Assembly (NCBI GenBank): GCA_964247295.1
Contig: CAXTTV010000003.1
Span: 8,681 to 69,445 of the forward strand
DNA from: an uncultured Ktedonobacteraceae bacterium
GTDB taxonomy: Bacteria; Chloroflexota; Ktedonobacteria; Ktedonobacterales; Ktedonobacteraceae
DNA length: 60,765 nucleotides
Direction of reading: 5' to 3'
In this document: in pieces, positions 7,587 through 38,672 of the stretch
How positions within the stretch are numbered: position 1 is the first letter of the stretch
How the letters are laid out: the number at the start of each line of letters is the position of its first letter
The notes under the pieces: model-generated
Told to the model about the DNA's origin: nothing
Database searches by the model: none
The model's input: only the letters and a program-made list of their open reading frames with translations
Position numbers and translations under genes: made by a program

Positions 7587-9011
7587 TTGAAGATGCCATT
7601 ACCGTTTACTACAATCGCGGAGGCCGCGCAGGCGCTGCGTAATGGTCTGACCTCGCCCGGAGAACTGGTTGAGGAGGCCTTTAACCAGATTGAGGCCCGC
7701 GATGGCGAGATTAAGGCCTTTGTGACTTTGATGCGCGAACAGGCCCTGGCCGATGTTGAGATGATTGAGCGGGAGCAATTTACCGGCTTCTACCGCAGCC
7801 CCCTGCATGGGATTCCCGTCGCGATCAAAGATATTATCGCGGTCAAAGATGTACGGACCACTGCTGGTTCACGCGTGTTAGAGCAGCATATCTCGCGCGA
7901 GGACGCGATGGTCGTAGAGCAGTTGCGCAAGGCTGGCGCGATCATCATTGGCAAGACCAATACACACGAGTTTGCCTATGGGACCTTCACCCCTCCGACC
8001 CGCAATCCCTGGAACTTGAACCGTGTTCCCGGTGGTTCCAGCGGTGGATCAGCCGCTGCCCTCGCCGCCGGTATGGCGCTAGGTGCGGTCGGCAGCGATA
8101 CCGGCGGCTCTATTCGCATTCCCGCCGCCTGCTGCGGTGTTACTGGCCTCAAGCCAACCTATGGGCGTGTCAGTTGCTATGGAGTCATTCCCCTAAGCTG
8201 GTCGCTCGACCATGTTGGGCCGATGGCGAGGACCGCCGAGGATTGCGCGATCCTCTTCGACGCCATCGCCGGCTACGATCCCCGAGATCCCAATAGCACC
8301 TCTGGGCCACCGAGTCGGACCACTGCCAGCCTGATCAACGGGCCCGATGGGCGGCGAGATCAGATGTCGCTGCAAGGCCTGACCCTCGGTGTACCTTCAA
8401 ATGAGGCTGTCATTCCATTGGACCCCGAGGTTCGCGCCGCCTGGGCCGCCTCTCTGCTTGTAATGAAAGAAGAGGGGGCTCAGGTTAAGGAGGTAGAGAT
8501 CCCAACGGCCTCCCTTGAGCTTTACCGCACAATTCAACGGCCTGAAGCTACCCTCTCGCATCGCGATAAAGGCTGGTTGGAGCATCCTTCGCTCTACCAG
8601 GAAAGTACCCTTGAACATCTTATGAACGGCTTCCAGGTCAGCGCCGTCGACTATCTAGAGGCGCAACAGCGGCGGAGAGTCTTCGCCAGTGGAATGCGGA
8701 ATGTCCTGCAAAATCAGGGGATCGACGCCCTGGTCCTACCAACTATTCCCATTCCGGCAATCCCAGTAGAGCAGGCCGGTCACCTTATCGAAATCGACGG
8801 GATCAGCGAAGAGTCCGCGCCAGCGATGCTTCGGCTCACCATGCCCTTCAATCTCTCGGGGTTGCCAACCATCTCTTTCCCTTGTGGCTTCAGCAAAGAC
8901 AATCTGCCGATCGGACTTCAGATAGCGGGGCGACCCTTTGAAGAGTCCACTGTGCTGAGGATCGCCCATGCCTATCAACAATTAACCGACTGGCATACAC
9001 GCCAGCCTTAA
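7587..9011 (+). CDS. Amidase (amidase-signature family, GatA-like)
   Basis: [14 protein letters not shown]...[13 protein letters not shown] amidase signature with the Ser-cisSer-Lys context. TTG at 7587, alternative ATG at 7593. Confidence 0.85.
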
Positions 9012-31355: not shown

Positions 31356-31664
31356 TTGAGCTTCGTCGACAAAACTCTGAAGTGCCGCGAGTGCGGAAAC
31401 GATTTTGCTTTCACCGCCGGTGAGCAAGAATTCTACCAGCAAAAAGGCCTGATGAATCAGCCGGGTCGATGCCCAGACTGCCGGGCCGCCCGCCGTGCTT
31501 CTGCGGGTGGTATGGGAACCCGCTCCGAGCGTGCTCCTCGCGAAATGCATACAGTTATTTGTGCTGAATGTGGTAACGAGACGCAGGTCCCATTCTTGCC
31601 CAAGAATGACCGCCCGGTTTATTGCAGCCCCTGCTACGATAAGGTGCGCGTCGCCCGCAGCTAA
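31356..31664 (+). CDS. Small duplicated CxxC zinc-ribbon protein
   Basis: TTG start with AGGAGG RBS (31343-31348). Two modules, each CxxC-x~20-CxxC (CRECG...CPDC; CAECG...CSPC). Confidence 0.55.
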   Translation: MSFVDKTLKCRECGNDFAFTAGEQEFYQQKGLMNQPGRCPDCRAARRASAGGMGTRSERAPREMHTVICAECGNETQVPFLPKNDRPVYCSPCYDKVRVARS

Positions 31665-32512
31665 CCTGACTATTTTCTCCCCTCTTTGACCGGCTTCAGT
31701 CAGTCTGGCTCTGCGGGGAAAAGATAGGGATGGTCGGGATAGTCTTTCCCCGAGAGCTTTTCCAAATCTACCTTAACCATTTTACCTTGCACCTTTATGC
31801 AAAAAAACAGCGAACGCTTGCTCTTTTTAATGAAGAGGTAAGCGTTTCGCTCCTCCAGGCTCTTTCTCTGGTCCCACGGTCTTTTCATTCTAGAAAGAAG
31901 TGGGGTCCAGGGGTGTCAACCCCTTGACGGGGGCGGAGCGTCTCCGCGCACCTTCTCCCCCTCCTCGCTGCCGAAGGCGGCAGAAGAAGAGAATGAAACA
32001 GCCTTGCTCTAGTCCCACGCTGGTTGACTCTCCCTTCTTCTAAACATATACTTACTATTAGTAGTGTTTTTCTTTTATCTAGAACTGCCGATTATCCTTT
32101 TCCAGGTGCCCACAACTAATGGTGTCGCGCGTATCTAGAAAAAGTGAGCTAATCCACTATTATATTTCCTCTATACAGGTTTGTAGATAGGCGCAGAGAA
32201 CAAAATCTGGCTTTTTTTTGTTATCAATTATAAAGAGCTTGATATTCTCGTTGTCAGATAAAAATTGGCTATTTTATAAATGTTCTGGAGCTGGAATGTT
32301 ACATCTTCCAGTCCTTGTGCGTTTCTTTTGCATATAGATCCACTTTTTATTCTTTAGTTGAAGGAAGCAGGGAGGGGGGAATTGGGGCTCTGCCCCAGCC
32401 CCCGGCAGGAGGGAATAGAGCCCTCCCGTGCCTCCCGTTTTTGTCTCATTTTACTATTCGTTACTGTTCTCAATCTTTTTCGTAGAACGATGGCGAGGAT
32501 TTCAGGGGTATC

Positions 32513-34855
32513 TTGATGATGGCTATTAATTCCGGTGAATCCCTTGCACCTGCCCAGGTTACATTGCAGCTTCTCTTAAAGGAGACGCGTACATATCTCT
32601 CCGATGGCGATCTGGAGAAAATTCTGCGCGCCTATGATCTGGCTGAAAATGCTCATCGTGGCGTCTTCCGTCGATCTGGCGAGCCGTATATATTGCATCC
32701 TTTAGAGGTGGCGTTGCTACTCGCGGATATGCGTATTGACGCGGATGGGATTGTAGCCGCGCTTCTGCATGATGTTGTTGAAGATACAGACTCTTCCCTT
32801 AACGATCTTCGTGAGCAGTTCGGTGAGGCGGTGGCTCGTATCGTTGACGGAGTAACAAAATTTGATGCCCTGGCTAATCTCCCATCTTCGCCTCTGTCAT
32901 CCGACACTTCCCATATCACGGAAACTCCCGAGCCGATCGACCTGGAGCAGCGTCAACGCCAGGAGCGCGAGATCAAAAATCGTTTGAAGTCGGAGACGGT
33001 CCGCAAGATGATGCTGGCGATGGTGGAAGATCCGCGCGTGGTGGTGTTGAAGCTGGCCGACCGCATCCATAATATGCGTACACTTGGTGCGATGAAGCCC
33101 TCCCAACAGCAGAACAAGGCTCGCGAGACTGCGGAGATCTATGCTCCCCTGGCTCGACGCCTGGGTATGGTTCTGGCTCAGGCTGAATTGGAAGATCTCT
33201 CCCTCCGCTATCTGGAACCTGAGCGTTACGCGACTCTGGCCCGCCAGGTAGAGGAGGAGCGGCGTAAACGCAAGCCATATGTGGAACAGGTCACAAAAAT
33301 GCTTCAGGAGGAGATGGATCGTGCGAATATTAAAGCACAGGTTCACCCCTGGCAGAAACATCTGGCTAGCATCAACCGTAAACTTTTTCAGGGGGGGATG
33401 GATGATGTAAGCCAGCTTCACGATCTGGTTTCCTTCCGGATTCTGGTGGACTCAGAATATGAATGTTACGTGGCTCTGGGTCATATTCACGCTCTCTGGC
33501 ATCCAAAGGATGGCCGGATTAAAGACTTTATCGCGACGCCCAAGCTGAATGGCTATCAATCGCTGCACACTACCGTGTTTTGTCTGGAGAACCGCCTCGC
33601 GGAAATCCAGATCCGTACAGAGGATATGCAGCACATCGCGGACTACGGGATCGCCAGTTACTGGTCGACCAGAAATCAAGAGGGTCAGTCTCATCTTTCG
33701 TACCGCGAGATGGTAGCCTGGATTGAGCAATTACGTGATTGGCAGCGCGAGCTTCCACAAAACGCGGATGAGTTTGTTGAGGCGGTGAAAGGTGATATCT
33801 TTGATGAGCAGATCTTTGTGTTTACTCCAAAAGGAGAGGTGAAGGATCTACCGCGCGGCTCAACGCCGCTAGATATGGCCTACCGCATCCATTCAGATAT
33901 TGGCGATCATTGTGCCGGCGCTCGCATTATTACCAATGTGGCCGATACCGAACGCCTGGTAACTCGTCTGGTTCCGCTGGATTATGAGCTGAAGAACGGT
34001 GAGATTGTCGATATCGTGACCAATCGAAGCGCTCATCCTACCAGCGATTGGCTTTCTTTCGCGCGCACAACTTCCGCCCGAGCCAAGATTCGGCGCTATC
34101 TGAAGACGTATGAGCGCGAGATAAATCTCCAGCTCGGTCAGGAGCGCTTGAACCAGGCTTTGAAGGCTGCCGGCGCTTCAGGTATAGATGCAGTGGAAGA
34201 GCGGGACTTTACGTCCTTTGGCGCGGCTAAAAAGCTCAACTCTCCCGAGGATGTCTATGTCGCACTTGGACGTGAAGATCTGCCGATCGAGCTGGTGATG
34301 GAGAATGTTCTTCCTCACCTGGAGATCCGTGGGGCACTTCAGCCGTTGCCAAAGGCAATGCAGGAGTCACCCACAGCGAAAAATGAGATCTATACTTGTG
34401 AGGAAGGTGACGCGACAGCTCGCACAGCGTCTCTGGCGCACTGCTGCTGCCCGATCCCACCAGATCCCATTGTGGGTTTTCTTCATCCCAATCGGGGAGT
34501 GATGGTCCACCATAATGATTGTAGTGCCCTCCAACGCTCTCGTAAAGGGGCGAAAGAACGGATCATTGGAATAAACTGGGATCAGATTGAGGCTGAGCAC
34601 TACCTGGCTCCAATCGTGATTATCGCCCACGATCGCGCGGGCCTGCTTCGAGATGTGGCTGCGGTAGTCGCGGATGCCGGTATCAATATGACGACAGTCG
34701 CTTCTACAACCCATCCATCTTTACATAAGGCAGTTATTAACGCGACGTTAGAGATTGAGACCGTGGATCAGATTGAGCGGGTCTCGAAACGCTTGCTACA
34801 GATCAGAAATGTAGTGAGTGTGGGCCGTGATCTTGGACGGCGCGCGGCCAGTTAA
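32513..34855 (+). CDS. rel: Bifunctional (p)ppGpp synthetase/hydrolase (Rel/SpoT homologue, intact HD site)
   Basis: The HD domain has HRGVFRRSGEPYILHPLEVA...LLHDVVEDT and LADRIHNMRTL. The synthetase domain has GRIKDFIATPKLNGYQSLHTTV and EIQIRT. TGS and ACT C-terminal domains are present. An insertion of about 30 aa lies within the HD domain. Confidence 0.9.
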   Translation: MMMAINSGESLAPAQVTLQLLLKETRTYLSDGDLEKILRAYDLAENAHRGVFRRSGEPYILHPLEVALLLADMRIDADGIVAALLHDVVEDTDSSLNDLREQFGEAVARIVDGVTKFDALANLPSSPLSSDTSHITETPEPIDLEQRQRQEREIKNRLKSETVRKMMLAMVEDPRVVVLKLADRIHNMRTLGAMKPSQQQNKARETAEIYAPLARRLGMVLAQAELEDLSLRYLEPERYATLARQVEEERRKRKPYVEQVTKMLQEEMDRANIKAQVHPWQKHLASINRKLFQGGMDDVSQLHDLVSFRILVDSEYECYVALGHIHALWHPKDGRIKDFIATPKLNGYQSLHTTVFCLENRLAEIQIRTEDMQHIADYGIASYWSTRNQEGQSHLSYREMVAWIEQLRDWQRELPQNADEFVEAVKGDIFDEQIFVFTPKGEVKDLPRGSTPLDMAYRIHSDIGDHCAGARIITNVADTERLVTRLVPLDYELKNGEIVDIVTNRSAHPTSDWLSFARTTSARAKIRRYLKTYEREINLQLGQERLNQALKAAGASGIDAVEERDFTSFGAAKKLNSPEDVYVALGREDLPIELVMENVLPHLEIRGALQPLPKAMQESPTAKNEIYTCEEGDATARTASLAHCCCPIPPDPIVGFLHPNRGVMVHHNDCSALQRSRKGAKERIIGINWDQIEAEHYLAPIVIIAHDRAGLLRDVAAVVADAGINMTTVASTTHPSLHKAVINATLEIETVDQIERVSKRLLQIRNVVSVGRDLGRRAAS

Positions 34856-34935
34856 CGAGATCCTCACACTATATGGTGGTTAAAAAAGCACGTATCATCG
34901 GCGTTTCAAAACGTCATGGGTTAAAATAGATAAAC

Positions 34936-37347
34936 ATGGTTTATACTTTTGTAGAACAAGATTCTTCGCCACGCGATGCCGCCGAGCGCTCCGCCCAGCA
35001 CCTGCTTGCGCTGGTTCGGAAATATATGTCTTCCGTTGAGATAGAGCTTGTTACACGGGCCCTCCAACTGGCTCAAGAGGTGACCCAGGGAGTAAGAGGC
35101 TTTCGCACTCTTCCTCCTTTTGAGCATGCTCTGGCGATCTCGACGATCCTTGCCGAGATGCATATTGATGCGATTGGGATTGCCTCTGGTCTGGTCTTTG
35201 AGGCCATTGATGCTTCGTTGCTCTCAATTGAAAGGATCGAGGGTGAGCTGGGCCACGCGGTCGCTCGTGTGGTTGAAAGTATATCCCGCTTGAATATTCT
35301 AGAGCGCAAAAAGCAGAGCATGGAGATGGAGCGCGCATCCTCTCAAGCAGATGTTAGCGTTGGGCGCGATGCGAAAAAGCGTCGAGTGCGCGAAGCGATG
35401 CATCAGCAACAGGCAGAGACCGTTCGTAAAATGTTTATGGGGATGGCTGATGATCCACGGGTGGTTCTGCTCAAGCTAGCATACCGTCTGTACGCGATGC
35501 GTCATCTCCGTGCCTCCCTAAGGGAGGGGCAGCCCGCCGATGCCGAGCAGATCAAGATGGCCCAGGAGACGCGAGATATCTATTCGCCTCTGGCTGGTCG
35601 CCTGGGGATGTCGCGCGCCGAATGCGAGCTGGATGATCTCTCGTTCGCGGTCCTTGAGCCTGATACCAGCGATTGGCTTCGCGATCAGATTGAGGCTGAG
35701 AGCATTCACTGGCGTTCGTATGTGAACCGCATCTGTGGCATCCTGCGGGAGGAGATGGCGAAACTAGGGATCAAAGCCGAAGTTTCGGGTCGTATGAAGC
35801 ATCTCTATAGTTTCTACAAAAAGCTGAAGCGTAACGCTGGCAATGTAGAAACGCTAGAAGGCCTCAAGGCCGCCGCTGACTTTAGCCAGATCCACGATCT
35901 TATTGCCTTCCGTATTCTGGTAAATACCACGTCAGATTGCTATGTAGCCCTTGGGCATGTGCATAGCCTCTGGCGACCAAAAGACGGTCGGATCAAAGAC
36001 TTTGTAGCCAATCCCAAACCCAATGGGTATCGTGCCCTGCATACCACTGTTTTCTGCATGGATAACCAGCTTGTTGAGATCCAGATTCGCACCTTTGAGA
36101 TGCATGAAATGGCGGAGTATGGTGTGGCGATGCACTGGCATTATAAAGATGTCGGTGACACCGCTTCGTCCTCAGCGAAAGAACTGCTCTCCTGGTTACG
36201 TCAGCTTGCCGATTGGCAAAAAGAGCTTCGTAGCTCGAATGGCAACGAAAGCGAGATTGTCGAGAGTATTCGGGAAGATATTTTTGATGAGCAGATCTAT
36301 GTATTTACGCCTCGGGGTGAGGTGAGGGATCTTCCTGTCGGCTCGACACCGTTGGATTTTGCTTACCGCATTCATTCCGAAGTTGGCGATAAATGCGCGG
36401 GAGCGCGGGTAACGGTGAGCAGCGGTTCTGGCGAGGCCGATCGCCTGACAACTCGTATGGTACCGCTCGACTACGAACTGAAAAACGGCGATATCATTGA
36501 TATTGTTACCAACCGCACCGCTCATCCCACCCGTGACTGGCTCCACTTTGCCCGGACCGCCAACGCCCGTAGCAAGATCCGACGCTACCTGAAGATTCAT
36601 GAGCGCGATATCAATATTCAGATCGGGCGGGAGCGCCTGGATCGCGAGAGCAAGCTCAGAGTTGGTCGTGGTCTGGAGGTACTGACAGAGGATAGCCAGA
36701 ACTGGCTGGCAGCCGAGTTTAAAGAGGAAACCTTTGAAGACCTGCTCTCCGCCATCGGAACGGATAAGCTGCGCCCGCACGCTGTCGCGGTCAGGCTTAG
36801 CGAGTATCTTCCACAGCCACGAGATCCCAGGGAGGAAGCGGGAGACGAGATCACGATCCCCTCAACGCGATCTTCCGCCAGTTCGGCAACCCTGGAGGTA
36901 GCTGGCGTCAGTGGCCTGCTGACACGGCTGGCGAACTGCTGTTGCCCTCTTCCAGGCGACGACATTGTTGGATTTATTAGTCGGGGGAAAGGTGTGATTA
37001 TTCATAGAACCGATTGTCGAAATATCAAACGCTACCATACCGAGCAGAGCGAGCGTCTGGTGGCGGTGACCTGGACAACTATGAACAATCAGCGGTATCT
37101 TGCCTCGATTGTGATTGTGGCGCAAGACCGCCCTGGTCTGATCCGTGATGTCGCCACCGTAGTCTCTGATGCCGGCGTGAATATGAACACCGTTACCACC
37201 TCAGTCACTAAAGGCCAGGCGATTATCAGCACGCAGATAAACGTTGACAGTATAGAGCAGATGGAGCAGCTTTTCCACAAGATCCAGCGGATCAAAGGAG
37301 TCAGCCATGTTGCCCGAGATCTTGGCCGCAAGCCCAGCGCTCTGTAG
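34936..37347 (+). CDS. relA: RelA-like (p)ppGpp synthetase with degenerate hydrolase domain
   Basis: The synthetase motifs are canonical (GRMKHLYSFYKKL, GRIKDFVANPKPNGYRALHTTV, EIQIRT). The HD motifs are lost (LLHDVVEDT to LVFEAIDAS; LADRIHNMRTL to LAYRLYAMRHL). TGS and ACT domains are present. Confidence 0.85.
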   Translation: MVYTFVEQDSSPRDAAERSAQHLLALVRKYMSSVEIELVTRALQLAQEVTQGVRGFRTLPPFEHALAISTILAEMHIDAIGIASGLVFEAIDASLLSIERIEGELGHAVARVVESISRLNILERKKQSMEMERASSQADVSVGRDAKKRRVREAMHQQQAETVRKMFMGMADDPRVVLLKLAYRLYAMRHLRASLREGQPADAEQIKMAQETRDIYSPLAGRLGMSRAECELDDLSFAVLEPDTSDWLRDQIEAESIHWRSYVNRICGILREEMAKLGIKAEVSGRMKHLYSFYKKLKRNAGNVETLEGLKAAADFSQIHDLIAFRILVNTTSDCYVALGHVHSLWRPKDGRIKDFVANPKPNGYRALHTTVFCMDNQLVEIQIRTFEMHEMAEYGVAMHWHYKDVGDTASSSAKELLSWLRQLADWQKELRSSNGNESEIVESIREDIFDEQIYVFTPRGEVRDLPVGSTPLDFAYRIHSEVGDKCAGARVTVSSGSGEADRLTTRMVPLDYELKNGDIIDIVTNRTAHPTRDWLHFARTANARSKIRRYLKIHERDINIQIGRERLDRESKLRVGRGLEVLTEDSQNWLAAEFKEETFEDLLSAIGTDKLRPHAVAVRLSEYLPQPRDPREEAGDEITIPSTRSSASSATLEVAGVSGLLTRLANCCCPLPGDDIVGFISRGKGVIIHRTDCRNIKRYHTEQSERLVAVTWTTMNNQRYLASIVIVAQDRPGLIRDVATVVSDAGVNMNTVTTSVTKGQAIISTQINVDSIEQMEQLFHKIQRIKGVSHVARDLGRKPSAL

Positions 37348-37430: not shown

Positions 37431-38672
37431 TTAGCCGCGTAGCCGCTCTAACACAGGTGGCTGACGAAGTTTCGCCAGAGCCCCGGCCTCGATCTGTCTG
37501 ACCCGCTCACGAGTAATACCCAGCTCACGTCCCACCTGTTCCAGGGGATGCGCCTGCCCATTGCCCAGGCCAAAGCGAAGCTGAAGGACCAGGCGTTCTC
37601 GGGGTGTAAGAACCGACTCAAGAACTCGCTGAACTTCATCCTTCAGAGTCTGAGTTGTCGCAATCTCTTCTGGCGAGGCCGACTCGGTATCCGCCAGAAC
37701 ATCGCCCAGCTCCTGCTCCTCATCCTCACCGACGGGTAGCTCCAGCGAAACTGGAGCGCCGGGGGCGGCCTGAAGCTCCATCATGCGAACCGGATCGAGT
37801 CCAGTTGCCTCAGCCAGCTCCTGCTCCGTAGGTTCGCGACCAAGCTCCTGAAGCAGGCGCTGACGCTCACGTCGGATGCGGTTAAGAGCGGTATTCACAT
37901 AGACAGGGAGTCGGATCGTGCGGCCCTTATCGGCGACCGCCCGGCTAATCGCCTGACGAATCCACCAGGTCGCGTGGGTTGAGAAACGATGGCCGCGTCG
38001 CCAGTCGTAGCGCTGGACCGCCCGGATCAGCCCAATATTGCCCTCCTGAATCAAGTCCAGAAGAGTCAATCCACGTCCAACGTATCGTTTAGCGATACTC
38101 ACAACCAGGCGCAGGTTGGCGAGAATAAACTGCTTCATCGCATCTCGGTCACCCTGCTCGATCCGTTTCGCCAGCTCAATCTCGCGCTCATGAGTAATCA
38201 TCGGGACCCGGCCAATTTCACGTAGATATGTCATTACGGCATCGGATTCACCCGCATCGGACTCATTCGTTGAGTTCTCATCCTGATCCTCAGACCGGCG
38301 ACGGCGCATAGGAGTGCGACGAAGCGTGGAGGCTTCCTCGTGAGGGACAGTTGGCAGATTAAGCATAGAAACCGCTTCCGCCAGCTCGGGCGCGCCTTCT
38401 AGTTGAGTCAGTTCATCATGCATTTGAGACATTTCTTCCAACTCAATAGGGGCTGGTTCCAGAGTTGTTAGGTCTTCCTCCAGCTCCTGATCTTCCTTTT
38501 CTAACTCGTCCACCTCTTCAATCACATCGTCCGTTGGTGTATAATCGAGATCCTTACCCAGCAATTGCTCGATATCAAACTGCTGGTCCAGATCAGGGAT
38601 TTTCTTTTCATTCTTGTCTAAAAGAAGCGCATTTCCCGTCATGGCACGCTCACGCTGTTGCAGTTCAATCAT
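37431..38672 (-). CDS. rpoD: RNA polymerase primary sigma factor (sigma-70, RpoD/SigA)
   Basis: Regions 1.2-4 are present, including the rpoD box MTYLREIGRVPMITHEREIELAKRIE. Acidic N-terminal region 1.1. Confidence 0.9.
   Translation of the reverse strand: MIELQQRERAMTGNALLLDKNEKKIPDLDQQFDIEQLLGKDLDYTPTDDVIEEVDELEKEDQELEEDLTTLEPAPIELEEMSQMHDELTQLEGAPELAEAVSMLNLPTVPHEEASTLRRTPMRRRRSEDQDENSTNESDAGESDAVMTYLREIGRVPMITHEREIELAKRIEQGDRDAMKQFILANLRLVVSIAKRYVGRGLTLLDLIQEGNIGLIRAVQRYDWRRGHRFSTHATWWIRQAISRAVADKGRTIRLPVYVNTALNRIRRERQRLLQELGREPTEQELAEATGLDPVRMMELQAAPGAPVSLELPVGEDEEQELGDVLADTESASPEEIATTQTLKDEVQRVLESVLTPRERLVLQLRFGLGNGQAHPLEQVGRELGITRERVRQIEAGALAKLRQPPVLERLRG

Follow-up and report, generated by a model that had tools for sequence, protein, structure and literature searches.

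Tandem genes for two long RelA/SpoT homologues (RSHs) are conserved throughout the class Ktedonobacteria (Chloroflexota) and are not peculiar to the DNA described here, a 60,765-nucleotide stretch (hereafter the window) of contig CAXTTV010000003.1 from an uncultured Ktedonobacteraceae bacterium (assembly GCA_964247295.1). The downstream gene, RSH-2, codes for a protein that has lost the catalytic residues of the hydrolase domain and kept canonical synthetase motifs, whereas the product of the upstream gene, RSH-1, has an intact hydrolase site and a synthetase domain with a remodelled ATP pocket. We consider it likely, with a probability of roughly 0.75, that a tandem duplication was followed by specialisation into a RelA-like, synthetase-only RSH-2 and a SpoT-like RSH-1 that would act as the main hydrolase and have an altered synthetase.

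An open reading frame (ORF) scan of the window located both genes on the + strand, at exactly 32513..34855 and 34936..37347, in agreement with an earlier note on this DNA that had reported two adjacent full-length RSH genes of 780 and 803 aa on the same strand, 80 nt apart. The features referred to below are:

32513..34855, + strand: RSH-1, 780 aa, long RSH, SpoT-like, with intact hydrolase site and remodelled synthetase ATP pocket (ORF, Pfam, TIGR00691)
32630..33169, + strand: HD (hydrolase) domain of RSH-1, aa 40-219
32864..32983, + strand: insertion in the HD alpha6-alpha7 loop of RSH-1, about aa 118-157, variable in length and sequence among orthologues
33353..33676, + strand: SYN (synthetase) domain of RSH-1, aa 281-388 by Pfam; the contact residues W280 and K282 lie at its N-terminal motif, W280 just upstream of the boundary
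33929..33958, + strand: TGS insertion of RSH-1, about aa 473-482, after the GARI strand, in a segment of 25 residues as against 15 in the references
34856..34935, no strand: spacer between RSH-1 and RSH-2, 80 nt
34936..37347, + strand: RSH-2, 803 aa, ATG start, long RSH, RelA-like, with pseudo-hydrolase domain and canonical synthetase motifs
35059..35610, + strand: pseudo-HD domain of RSH-2, aa 42-225
35314-35397, + strand: HD insertion of RSH-2, aa 127-154, 28 residues, between RelSeq residues 115 and 116
35788..36150, + strand: SYN domain of RSH-2, aa 285-405
36412..36447, + strand: TGS insertion of RSH-2, about aa 493-504, in a segment of 27 residues as against 15, at the same position as that of RSH-1 and alignable with it

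The start codon of RSH-1 is TTG, with two ATG codons immediately after it. Both proteins have the complete long-RSH architecture in Pfam (HD_4, RelA_SpoT, TGS, AH-RIS (RelA_AH_RIS) and ACT (ACT_4)) and score above the 499.2-bit cut-off of TIGR00691 spoT_relA, with 636.3 bits for RSH-1 and 557.5 bits for RSH-2, which places both in the long RSH family (RelA/SpoT) on architecture as well as score. They are 42% identical to each other over the full length and are thus old paralogues rather than the product of an assembly duplication.

Hydrolase and synthetase domains of the two copies

Residues are numbered after Bacillus subtilis (Bsu) Rel and RelSeq in the comparisons, and the outgroup comprises 142 long RSHs that were collected by searching 1.84 billion representatives exhaustively with a profile. 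The hydrolase site of RSH-1 is canonical, as the earlier note had it: residues H62, H86-D87, E90-D91, D183 and N187 correspond to Bsu/RelSeq H53, H77-D78, E81-D82, D144 and N148, and all 13 scored HD sites are in the outgroup consensus state in 67-68 of the 68 RSH-1 orthologues. In RSH-2, F88-E89 aligns with H77-D78, D92-A93-S94 with E81-D82-T83, and Y183, Y186 and A187 with D144, H147 and N148, in ungapped HMMER blocks against RelSeq 1VJ7, 7OIW, T. thermophilus Rel 6S2T, M. smegmatis Rel, B. subtilis Rel and E. coli RelA. RSH-2 thus lacks both the Mn2+ ligands and the catalytic ED pair and keeps H53 alone, so that the loss of catalytic residues proposed for this copy was borne out after correct gapping against RelSeq.

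The replacements in RSH-2 are shared by most or all of its 74 orthologues (H77F/Y; D78E, E81D and D144Y, each 74/74; D82A, 69/74; N148A, 66/74; R44G, 59/74). Among 48 HD positions conserved in the outgroup, 17 are changed in RSH-2 and 1 in RSH-1. Fourteen of these 17 are also altered in E. coli RelA, and three replacements, H77F, E81D and D82A (aa 88-93, window 35197-35214), are the same in RSH-2 and the single RelA sequence compared. These three look convergent; the HD domain of RSH-2 is 41% identical to that of RSH-1 and 27% identical to that of E. coli RelA.

The synthetase motifs of RSH-2 are all canonical (GRxKHLYSFYKK, D..R, GRIKD of the RxKD type, the G-loop NGY, EIQIRT and MHEMAEYGVAMHWHYK), as had been noted before. 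Of the 41 conserved SYN positions just four differ, each by a conservative change, and the motifs are invariant in the 74 orthologues, with every scored SYN catalytic site canonical. The RxKD motif has its R at 295 in 74/74 and its K at 297 in 71/74. Both copies are of the RxKD type and not of the ExDD type of E. coli RelA, a charge-reversal motif of the RelA synthetase domain that has reportedly been described in work by Sajish et al. Taken together, the domain comparisons support the assignment of RSH-2 as a putatively hydrolase-dead, synthetase-intact long RSH.

The first copy had been taken for an intact bifunctional Rel, and this did not hold up. RSH-1 has HPWQKHLASINRKL in place of the Rel motif sGRpKHiYSIyrKM and MQHIADYGIASYWSTR in place of MHeiAEyGvAAHWaYK. 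The changed residues in the window are W280 (=R241), A285 (=Y246), Q373 (=H333), D377 (=E337), S382 (=A342), Y383 (=H343) and T386 (=Y346), while K282, S286, K290, D304, R309, Y348, H352, E364 and Q366 are retained. Seven of the 41 conserved SYN positions are changed class-wide (R241W, Y299F, H333Q, E337D, A342S, H343Y and Y346L). Position 241 is R in 141 of the 142 outgroup sequences and W in 61 of the 68 RSH-1 orthologues; the corresponding changes are from H (140) to Y (68) at 343, from Y (140) to L or M (66) at 346, from E (136) to D (67) at 337, and from an aromatic residue (Y/W/F, 134) to A or S (66) at 246. By contrast with these, K243, S247, K251, D264, R269, the RxKD motif, Y308, H312, E324 and Q326 are retained in 65-68 of 68 orthologues (D264 and Y308, 68/68; Q326, 67/68; R269, 66/68). 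Since W241 is found in both Thermogemmatispora and Ktedonobacterales genera, it is ancestral; one subgroup of RSH-1 from metagenome-assembled genomes (MAGs) has R at 241 and all the other SYN changes, which is probably a single-base reversion.

Two published complexes indicate what these residues do. RelCt in complex with APCPP stacks the adenine between R245 and R273 and binds the triphosphate through R245, K247, S251 and K255 (PMC13376610); by the R-x-K-x3-S-x3-K spacing, RelCt R245, R273, K247, S251 and K255 are R241, R269, K243, S247 and K251 in Bsu numbering. In SaRelP-AMPCPP (S. aureus), R78 and R112 stack the adenine, D107 and E174 bind Mg2+, and H190 forms a hydrogen bond to the adenosine ribose (PMC5794853). 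Judged by motif spacing, H190 is most probably the counterpart of H343. From the roles of these residues it follows that the fixed changes in RSH-1 are grouped on the adenosine-binding side of its ATP pocket, while its catalytic centre and the acceptor (G-loop) side are untouched. The degeneration of the two copies is accordingly, at the level of sequence, reciprocal but asymmetric.

We measured constraint as mean pairwise identity over 62 genome-matched orthologue pairs. The SYN domain reached 0.838 across the class in RSH-1 and 0.847 in RSH-2, which indicates that the remodelled domain of RSH-1 is as constrained as an active synthetase domain. For the HD domain the values were 0.825 in RSH-1 and 0.709 in RSH-2, whose domains range from 56 to 85% identity. 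The pseudo-HD of RSH-2 thus evolves about 1.7 times faster, yet it is clearly constrained, like the regulatory pseudo-HD of RelA.

Origin and distribution of the pair

RelA and SpoT of E. coli were combined with 34 sequences of Ktedonobacteria and 148 representatives in neighbour-joining trees (Kimura distances, 100 bootstraps). RSH-1, RSH-2 and five representatives formed one clade, with a bootstrap support of 84% for 700 columns and 99% for 511 non-HD columns, and both E. coli proteins as well as the remaining outgroup representatives fell outside it. The RSH-1 and RSH-2 orthogroups were each supported at 100%. The choice between a lineage-specific duplication and an acquired proteobacterial RelA, which the earlier note had left to phylogeny, thus fell in favour of the former.

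The TGS domain carries an insertion of 10-12 residues in 68/68 RSH-1, 74/74 RSH-2 and 6/6 in-group extra sequences; this insertion is absent from 142/142 outgroup long RSHs and from the E. coli and B. subtilis references. Being a rare genomic change, it supports a common origin independently of the tree. Together with the trees, the RxKD rather than ExDD motif and the closer similarity of the HD domain of RSH-2 to that of RSH-1 than to that of E. coli RelA, it confirms that RSH-1 and RSH-2 arose by a lineage-specific duplication independent of the RelA/SpoT split in beta- and gammaproteobacteria, and so agrees with the independent RelA-like specialisation suggested at the outset.

The enlarged alpha6-alpha7 loop of the HD domain is less exclusive. 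It measures 31-68 residues in RSH-1 and 44-61 in RSH-2, as against 16 in most outgroup sequences, and loops of more than 30 residues also occur in 14 of the 148 representatives. At least three of these (P0121-P0123) lie within the RSH-1 and RSH-2 clade, and another, P0129, is the nearest outgroup to that clade in the non-HD tree. The mean within-class identity of the insertion in RSH-1 is only 32%. An insertion of about 30 aa had been reported for the first copy; it is indeed there, but it is not confined to RSH-1, as RSH-2 has 28 residues at this place. In the A. baumannii SpoT structure, a beta-hairpin of the TGS domain touches the alpha6/alpha7 motif in the hydrolase-active state (PMC9974481), and the TGS insertion and the enlarged loop might be functionally linked. 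The TGS histidine (Bsu H420, EcRelA H432) and the CCxPxPGD motif of the ZFD are conserved in both copies, with the CC pair of the ZFD and the TGS histidine at 95% or more.

The nearest relatives of the two proteins are annotated as Ktedonobacteraceae. A scan with one genome per species yielded 80 loci, all from Ktedonobacteria or from coarsely labelled Chloroflexota MAGs, and RSH-1 was followed by RSH-2 on the same strand in 73 of these. In six of the other seven loci the contig ends before the upstream gene; in the seventh, L030, no RSH-1 was detected in the approximately 2.1 kb available upstream of RSH-2. The isolates among the loci belong to Dictyobacter, Tengunoibacter, Thermogemmatispora, Ktedonosporobacter, Ktedonospora and Thermosporothrix. 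The spacer, measured approximately in 68 genomes, has a median length of about 145 nt (range about 3-636 nt) and does not exceed 150 nt in 35 of the 68. P0123, a deep-branching RSH-2-like metagenomic protein, is preceded at a distance of 7 nt by a gene that ends in an RSH-type ZFD and ACT, which extends the tandem order to this relative.

Copies of RSH-1 type also occur outside the tandem. P0139 (WP_201375448, Ktedonobacter robiniae, 609 aa) and P0256 (HEX8732049, Ktedonobacterales MAG, 739 aa) have intact HD motifs and have lost the synthetase residues R269, Q326 and R328, or E324, Q326, K251 and H343, respectively. Catalytic residues of the synthetase thus do decay in this lineage when that activity is truly dispensable, and the sequences suggest that the two proteins are further hydrolase-only paralogues in these large genomes. 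A third RSH-1-like protein, P0124 (L084 857-3010), keeps the SYN motifs of RSH-1 type; since the next gene is of the SDR type and not RSH-2, it too is a dispersed copy.

Proposed division of activities and competing explanations

The sequence states, conservation, phylogeny and synteny described above are observed, and from them we predict the enzyme activities, ribosome dependence and co-transcription as follows. A bifunctional Rel that had already gained the TGS insertion and an enlarged alpha6-alpha7 loop would have undergone tandem duplication in the stem of the Ktedonobacteria, after which its activities would have been divided between the copies. RSH-2 would have lost (p)ppGpp hydrolysis and kept the HD as a constrained, non-catalytic and presumably regulatory or allosteric pseudo-domain, as in RelA. 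Because its synthetase, the tRNA-CCA-sensing TGS histidine and the ZFD/ACT domains are intact, it would be a stress-activated (p)ppGpp synthetase that probably depends on ribosomes and deacylated tRNA. RSH-1, with its fully canonical HD, would be the main (p)ppGpp hydrolase of the cell. The adenosine side of its ATP pocket would have been rebuilt (R241W, H343Y, Y346L, E337D, A342S, Y246A) and then frozen by selection. Since the Mg2+ and catalytic residues, the second adenine-stacking Arg, the phosphate-binding Lys and Ser residues and the G-loop are kept, its synthetase is probably weak or altered, SpoT-like, rather than dead.

We found no + strand terminator-like site between or within the two genes, nor any promoter-like site in the spacer, and co-transcription in the window is plausible. 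With the hydrolase gene placed 80 nt upstream of the synthetase-only gene, expression would be coupled, and this would protect the cell from toxic unopposed (p)ppGpp synthesis; RelA unbalanced by SpoT is toxic (PMC7229694). The conservation of the tandem suggests selection for coupled expression.

Several points weigh against this division of activities. Because R241 binds the adenine as well as the triphosphate, and H343 hardly varies, RSH-1 could be synthetase-dead in spite of its catalytic residues, and a regulatory pseudo-domain that still binds GDP or GTP would be conserved in the same way. The equivalence of SaRelP H190 and H343 is a probable one, drawn from the spacing of motifs. The tRNA-sensing histidine is kept in both copies, and the sequence is therefore silent on which of them, if either, works on the ribosome. 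The HD-only tree did not resolve the relationship, with a bootstrap of 42% for RSH-1 and RSH-2 and the HD of RSH-2 on a long branch joined only by its own relatives, and the trees are based on neighbour-joining and not on maximum likelihood. Finally, co-transcription is not universal, given that the spacer reaches about 600 nt in genera such as Thermogemmatispora.

The explanation that best survives beside ours is a complete subfunctionalisation as described in Moraxellaceae by Atkinson et al. 2011 (PMC3153485), in which RSH-1 would be a hydrolase-only SpoT[Hs] with a purely regulatory SYN domain and RSH-2 the only long-RSH source of (p)ppGpp. This is possible, if rather unlikely. It would account for the replacement of two adenosine-contacting residues, R241 and probably H343, along with Y246, E337 and Y346, and it fits the further loss of catalytic residues in the dispersed RSH-1-derived P0139 and P0256. 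The adenine-coordinating Arg (RelTt R249 = R241) is also among the residues substituted in the A. baumannii SpoT[Hs] (PDB 7QPR; PMC9974481). However, the latter has lost the equivalents of D264, Q326, R269 and Y308, that is the catalytic Asp/Gln (D272/Q347 equivalents), the G-loop Tyr and the second stacking Arg (R277), and shows no binding of GDP (PMC9974481), whereas RSH-1 keeps all four in 66-68 of 68 orthologues across order-level divergence. RSH-1 is in this respect much less degenerate than the A. baumannii enzyme, which is hydrolase-only by experiment. The return of W241 to R in one subclade is also hard to explain if the pocket is irrelevant.

It is unlikely that RSH-1 is instead an ordinary, fully bifunctional Rel to which a synthetase-only paralogue was added with no reciprocal specialisation. 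That 66-68 of 68 orthologues retain the Mg2+ and catalytic residues, R269, the phosphate-binding K243/S247/K251 and the G-loop would agree with this, as would a SYN domain as constrained as that of RSH-2, and in principle a Trp could stack on the adenine and a Tyr could form a hydrogen bond to the ribose. Yet only the HD is in the consensus state, since the seven fixed SYN changes include two residues that hardly vary elsewhere, R241 and H343. The Arg equivalent to R241 binds the ATP triphosphate (PMC13376610), which a Trp cannot do, and even the weak synthetase of E. coli SpoT departs from the consensus at one of these sites only (H333D).

We regard it as quite unlikely that the SYN domain of RSH-1 has been re-specified, either for a different pyrophosphate donor or product or as a nucleotide-sensing site that gates the hydrolase. 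The idea arises because the adenosine-binding half of the donor pocket was rebuilt once and has been held by selection as strong as that on RSH-2, with the Mg2+ site and the G-loop intact. If correct, a re-specified RSH-1 and its convergent, RelA-like partner would represent a second, mechanistically distinct split of synthesis and hydrolysis.

The horizontal acquisition of a proteobacterial RelA, inserted beside a resident rel, is highly improbable as the source of RSH-2. It could explain H77F, E81D and D82A and the somewhat higher score of RSH-2 in the RelA equivalog model (461 bits, as against 432 bits for RSH-1), but is effectively refuted by the low absolute score, the grouping with RSH-1 to the exclusion of E. 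coli RelA (84-99% bootstrap), the TGS insertion and enlarged HD loop common to both copies, the RxKD motif, the HD identities and the class-wide conservation of the tandem in a housekeeping context. The chance that RSH-2 owes its existence to faulty assembly or is a pseudogene in decay is negligible: frameshifted copies do occur in some MAG loci and apparently, with truncation, in the D. kobayashii isolate, but the window has an intact 803-aa ORF, there are 74 near-full-length orthologues with invariant synthetase motifs and the domain-wise identity given above, and the two copies are only 42% identical, which rules it out for the window.

We return to the favoured reading, a RelA-like RSH-2 beside a SpoT-like RSH-1, and to its relation to known systems. 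With a presumably dead but retained HD and an intact synthetase site in 74 orthologous sequences, RSH-2 has the composition of a RelA[hS] but carries GRIKD where E. coli RelA has DEFDD, and RSH-1 has the intact hydrolase site and the synthetase-only paralogue in the genome that go with a SpoT[HS]. The pair resembles E. coli RelA[hS] and SpoT[HS] (Beta-/Gammaproteobacteria) in that a long RSH with the same six-domain architecture was duplicated, one copy has a dead, retained HD and an intact synthetase, and its partner combines an intact hydrolase with a synthetase divergent from the Rel consensus. In contrast to the E. coli genes, which are about 0.9 Mb apart, the genes studied here are in tandem, and their products form a separate clade with a TGS insertion of its own and RxKD in RSH-2. 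The SYN changes R241W, H343Y and Y346L also set RSH-1 apart from E. coli SpoT, the RSH-1 domain being the more altered. Both copies are below the equivalog cut-offs of NCBIfam (RSH-2, 461.2 bits as against 728 for RelA, NF008124; RSH-1, 522.6 bits as against 947 for SpoT, NF008303), and neither falls into the RelA or SpoT clade. By these comparisons the proteins are bona fide long RSHs that are RelA- and SpoT-like in their predicted working and lie outside those subfamilies.

The best-scoring solved homologues are bifunctional Rel[HS] enzymes (RelSeq 1VJ7, B. subtilis Rel 6YXA and T. thermophilus Rel 6S2T), which the HD of RSH-1 and the SYN of RSH-2 match motif for motif; unlike these, neither protein of the Ktedonobacteria is canonical at both sites and both carry the TGS and HD-loop insertions. 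RshA-RshD are likewise lineage-restricted Rel duplicates within or beside the Rel of their own phylum, and in RshB of Bacteroidetes the HD of one copy has diverged in a manner 'similar to that for RelA' (PMC3153485). Here, however, the phylum is a different one, and both copies are specialised, in tandem and class-wide. Atkinson et al. 2011 recorded a single Rel[HS] in the Chloroflexi classes sampled, which did not include Ktedonobacteria (PMC3153485), and the main text of Jimmy et al. 2020, with 13 long-RSH subfamilies, makes no mention of Chloroflexi. Our search for literature that links Ktedonobacteria to RSH enzymes or the stringent response, which covered the latter paper in its main text, returned none. 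The pair thus represents a known evolutionary outcome reached independently, in tandem and across a whole class, with a distinctive remodelling of the ATP pocket in the hydrolase partner.

The RelA/SpoT split is a textbook case of subfunctionalisation in bacterial signalling and, to our knowledge, nearly all work on it has treated it as one event in the evolution of Proteobacteria. An ancient split of this kind that took place separately in Chloroflexota would be a natural replicate. It indicates that the loss of the hydrolase site can take the same path (H77F, E81D, D82A), that the pseudo-HD is again kept under constraint, and that the hydrolase-specialised partner again modifies its synthetase, by a different route. 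The pair therefore offers a new system in which to study predictability, regulation by pseudo-domains and the reason why the hydrolase partner keeps a synthetase. Ktedonobacteria are mycelial, spore-forming soil bacteria with large genomes. In actinomycetes, which are analogous to them, development and antibiotic production are under the control of (p)ppGpp; by this analogy the pair may offer a way into the physiology of Ktedonobacteria. As protein families go, the two are ordinary long RSH enzymes, relevant mainly to specialists in the stringent response.

Genomic surroundings

The neighbours of the pair in the window are ordinary chromosomal genes and include tgt and genes for lipoate-protein ligase, DAHP synthase, a treble-clef zinc-finger protein, a sigma-70-family factor and a VTT/DedA membrane protein, with no signs of mobile elements among the neighbouring genes.

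Some frameshifts were seen in RSH loci of other genomes. In Dictyobacter kobayashii Uno11 (L080 7493-9354), RSH-2 is apparently frameshifted near 8710 and the similarity ends at about residue 614, which may reflect a pseudogene or a sequence error. The frameshifts in the MFD long-read MAG loci L009, L067, L074 and L079 look like assembly errors.

A GC-rich nested hairpin followed by a U-run is located at 32363-32452 on the + strand, about 60-150 nt before the start of RSH-1, within an 850-nt stretch without a convincing ORF in which Rfam gave no significant match. Its folding energy is -48 kcal/mol (z = -2.3 relative to shuffled sequences), and it could be the terminator of an upstream transcript or an attenuator-like leader of the RSH operon. 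Further upstream, at 31356-31664 on the + strand, is the gene for the zinc-finger protein, a small protein with two treble-clef fingers (zf_Tbcl, zf_Tbcl_2). On the other side, at 37431-38672 on the - strand, the sigma-70-family factor (regions 1.2, 2, 3 and 4) is convergent to RSH-2 and lies 84 nt past its stop codon; it has an acidic, low-complexity N-terminal extension of about 140 aa.

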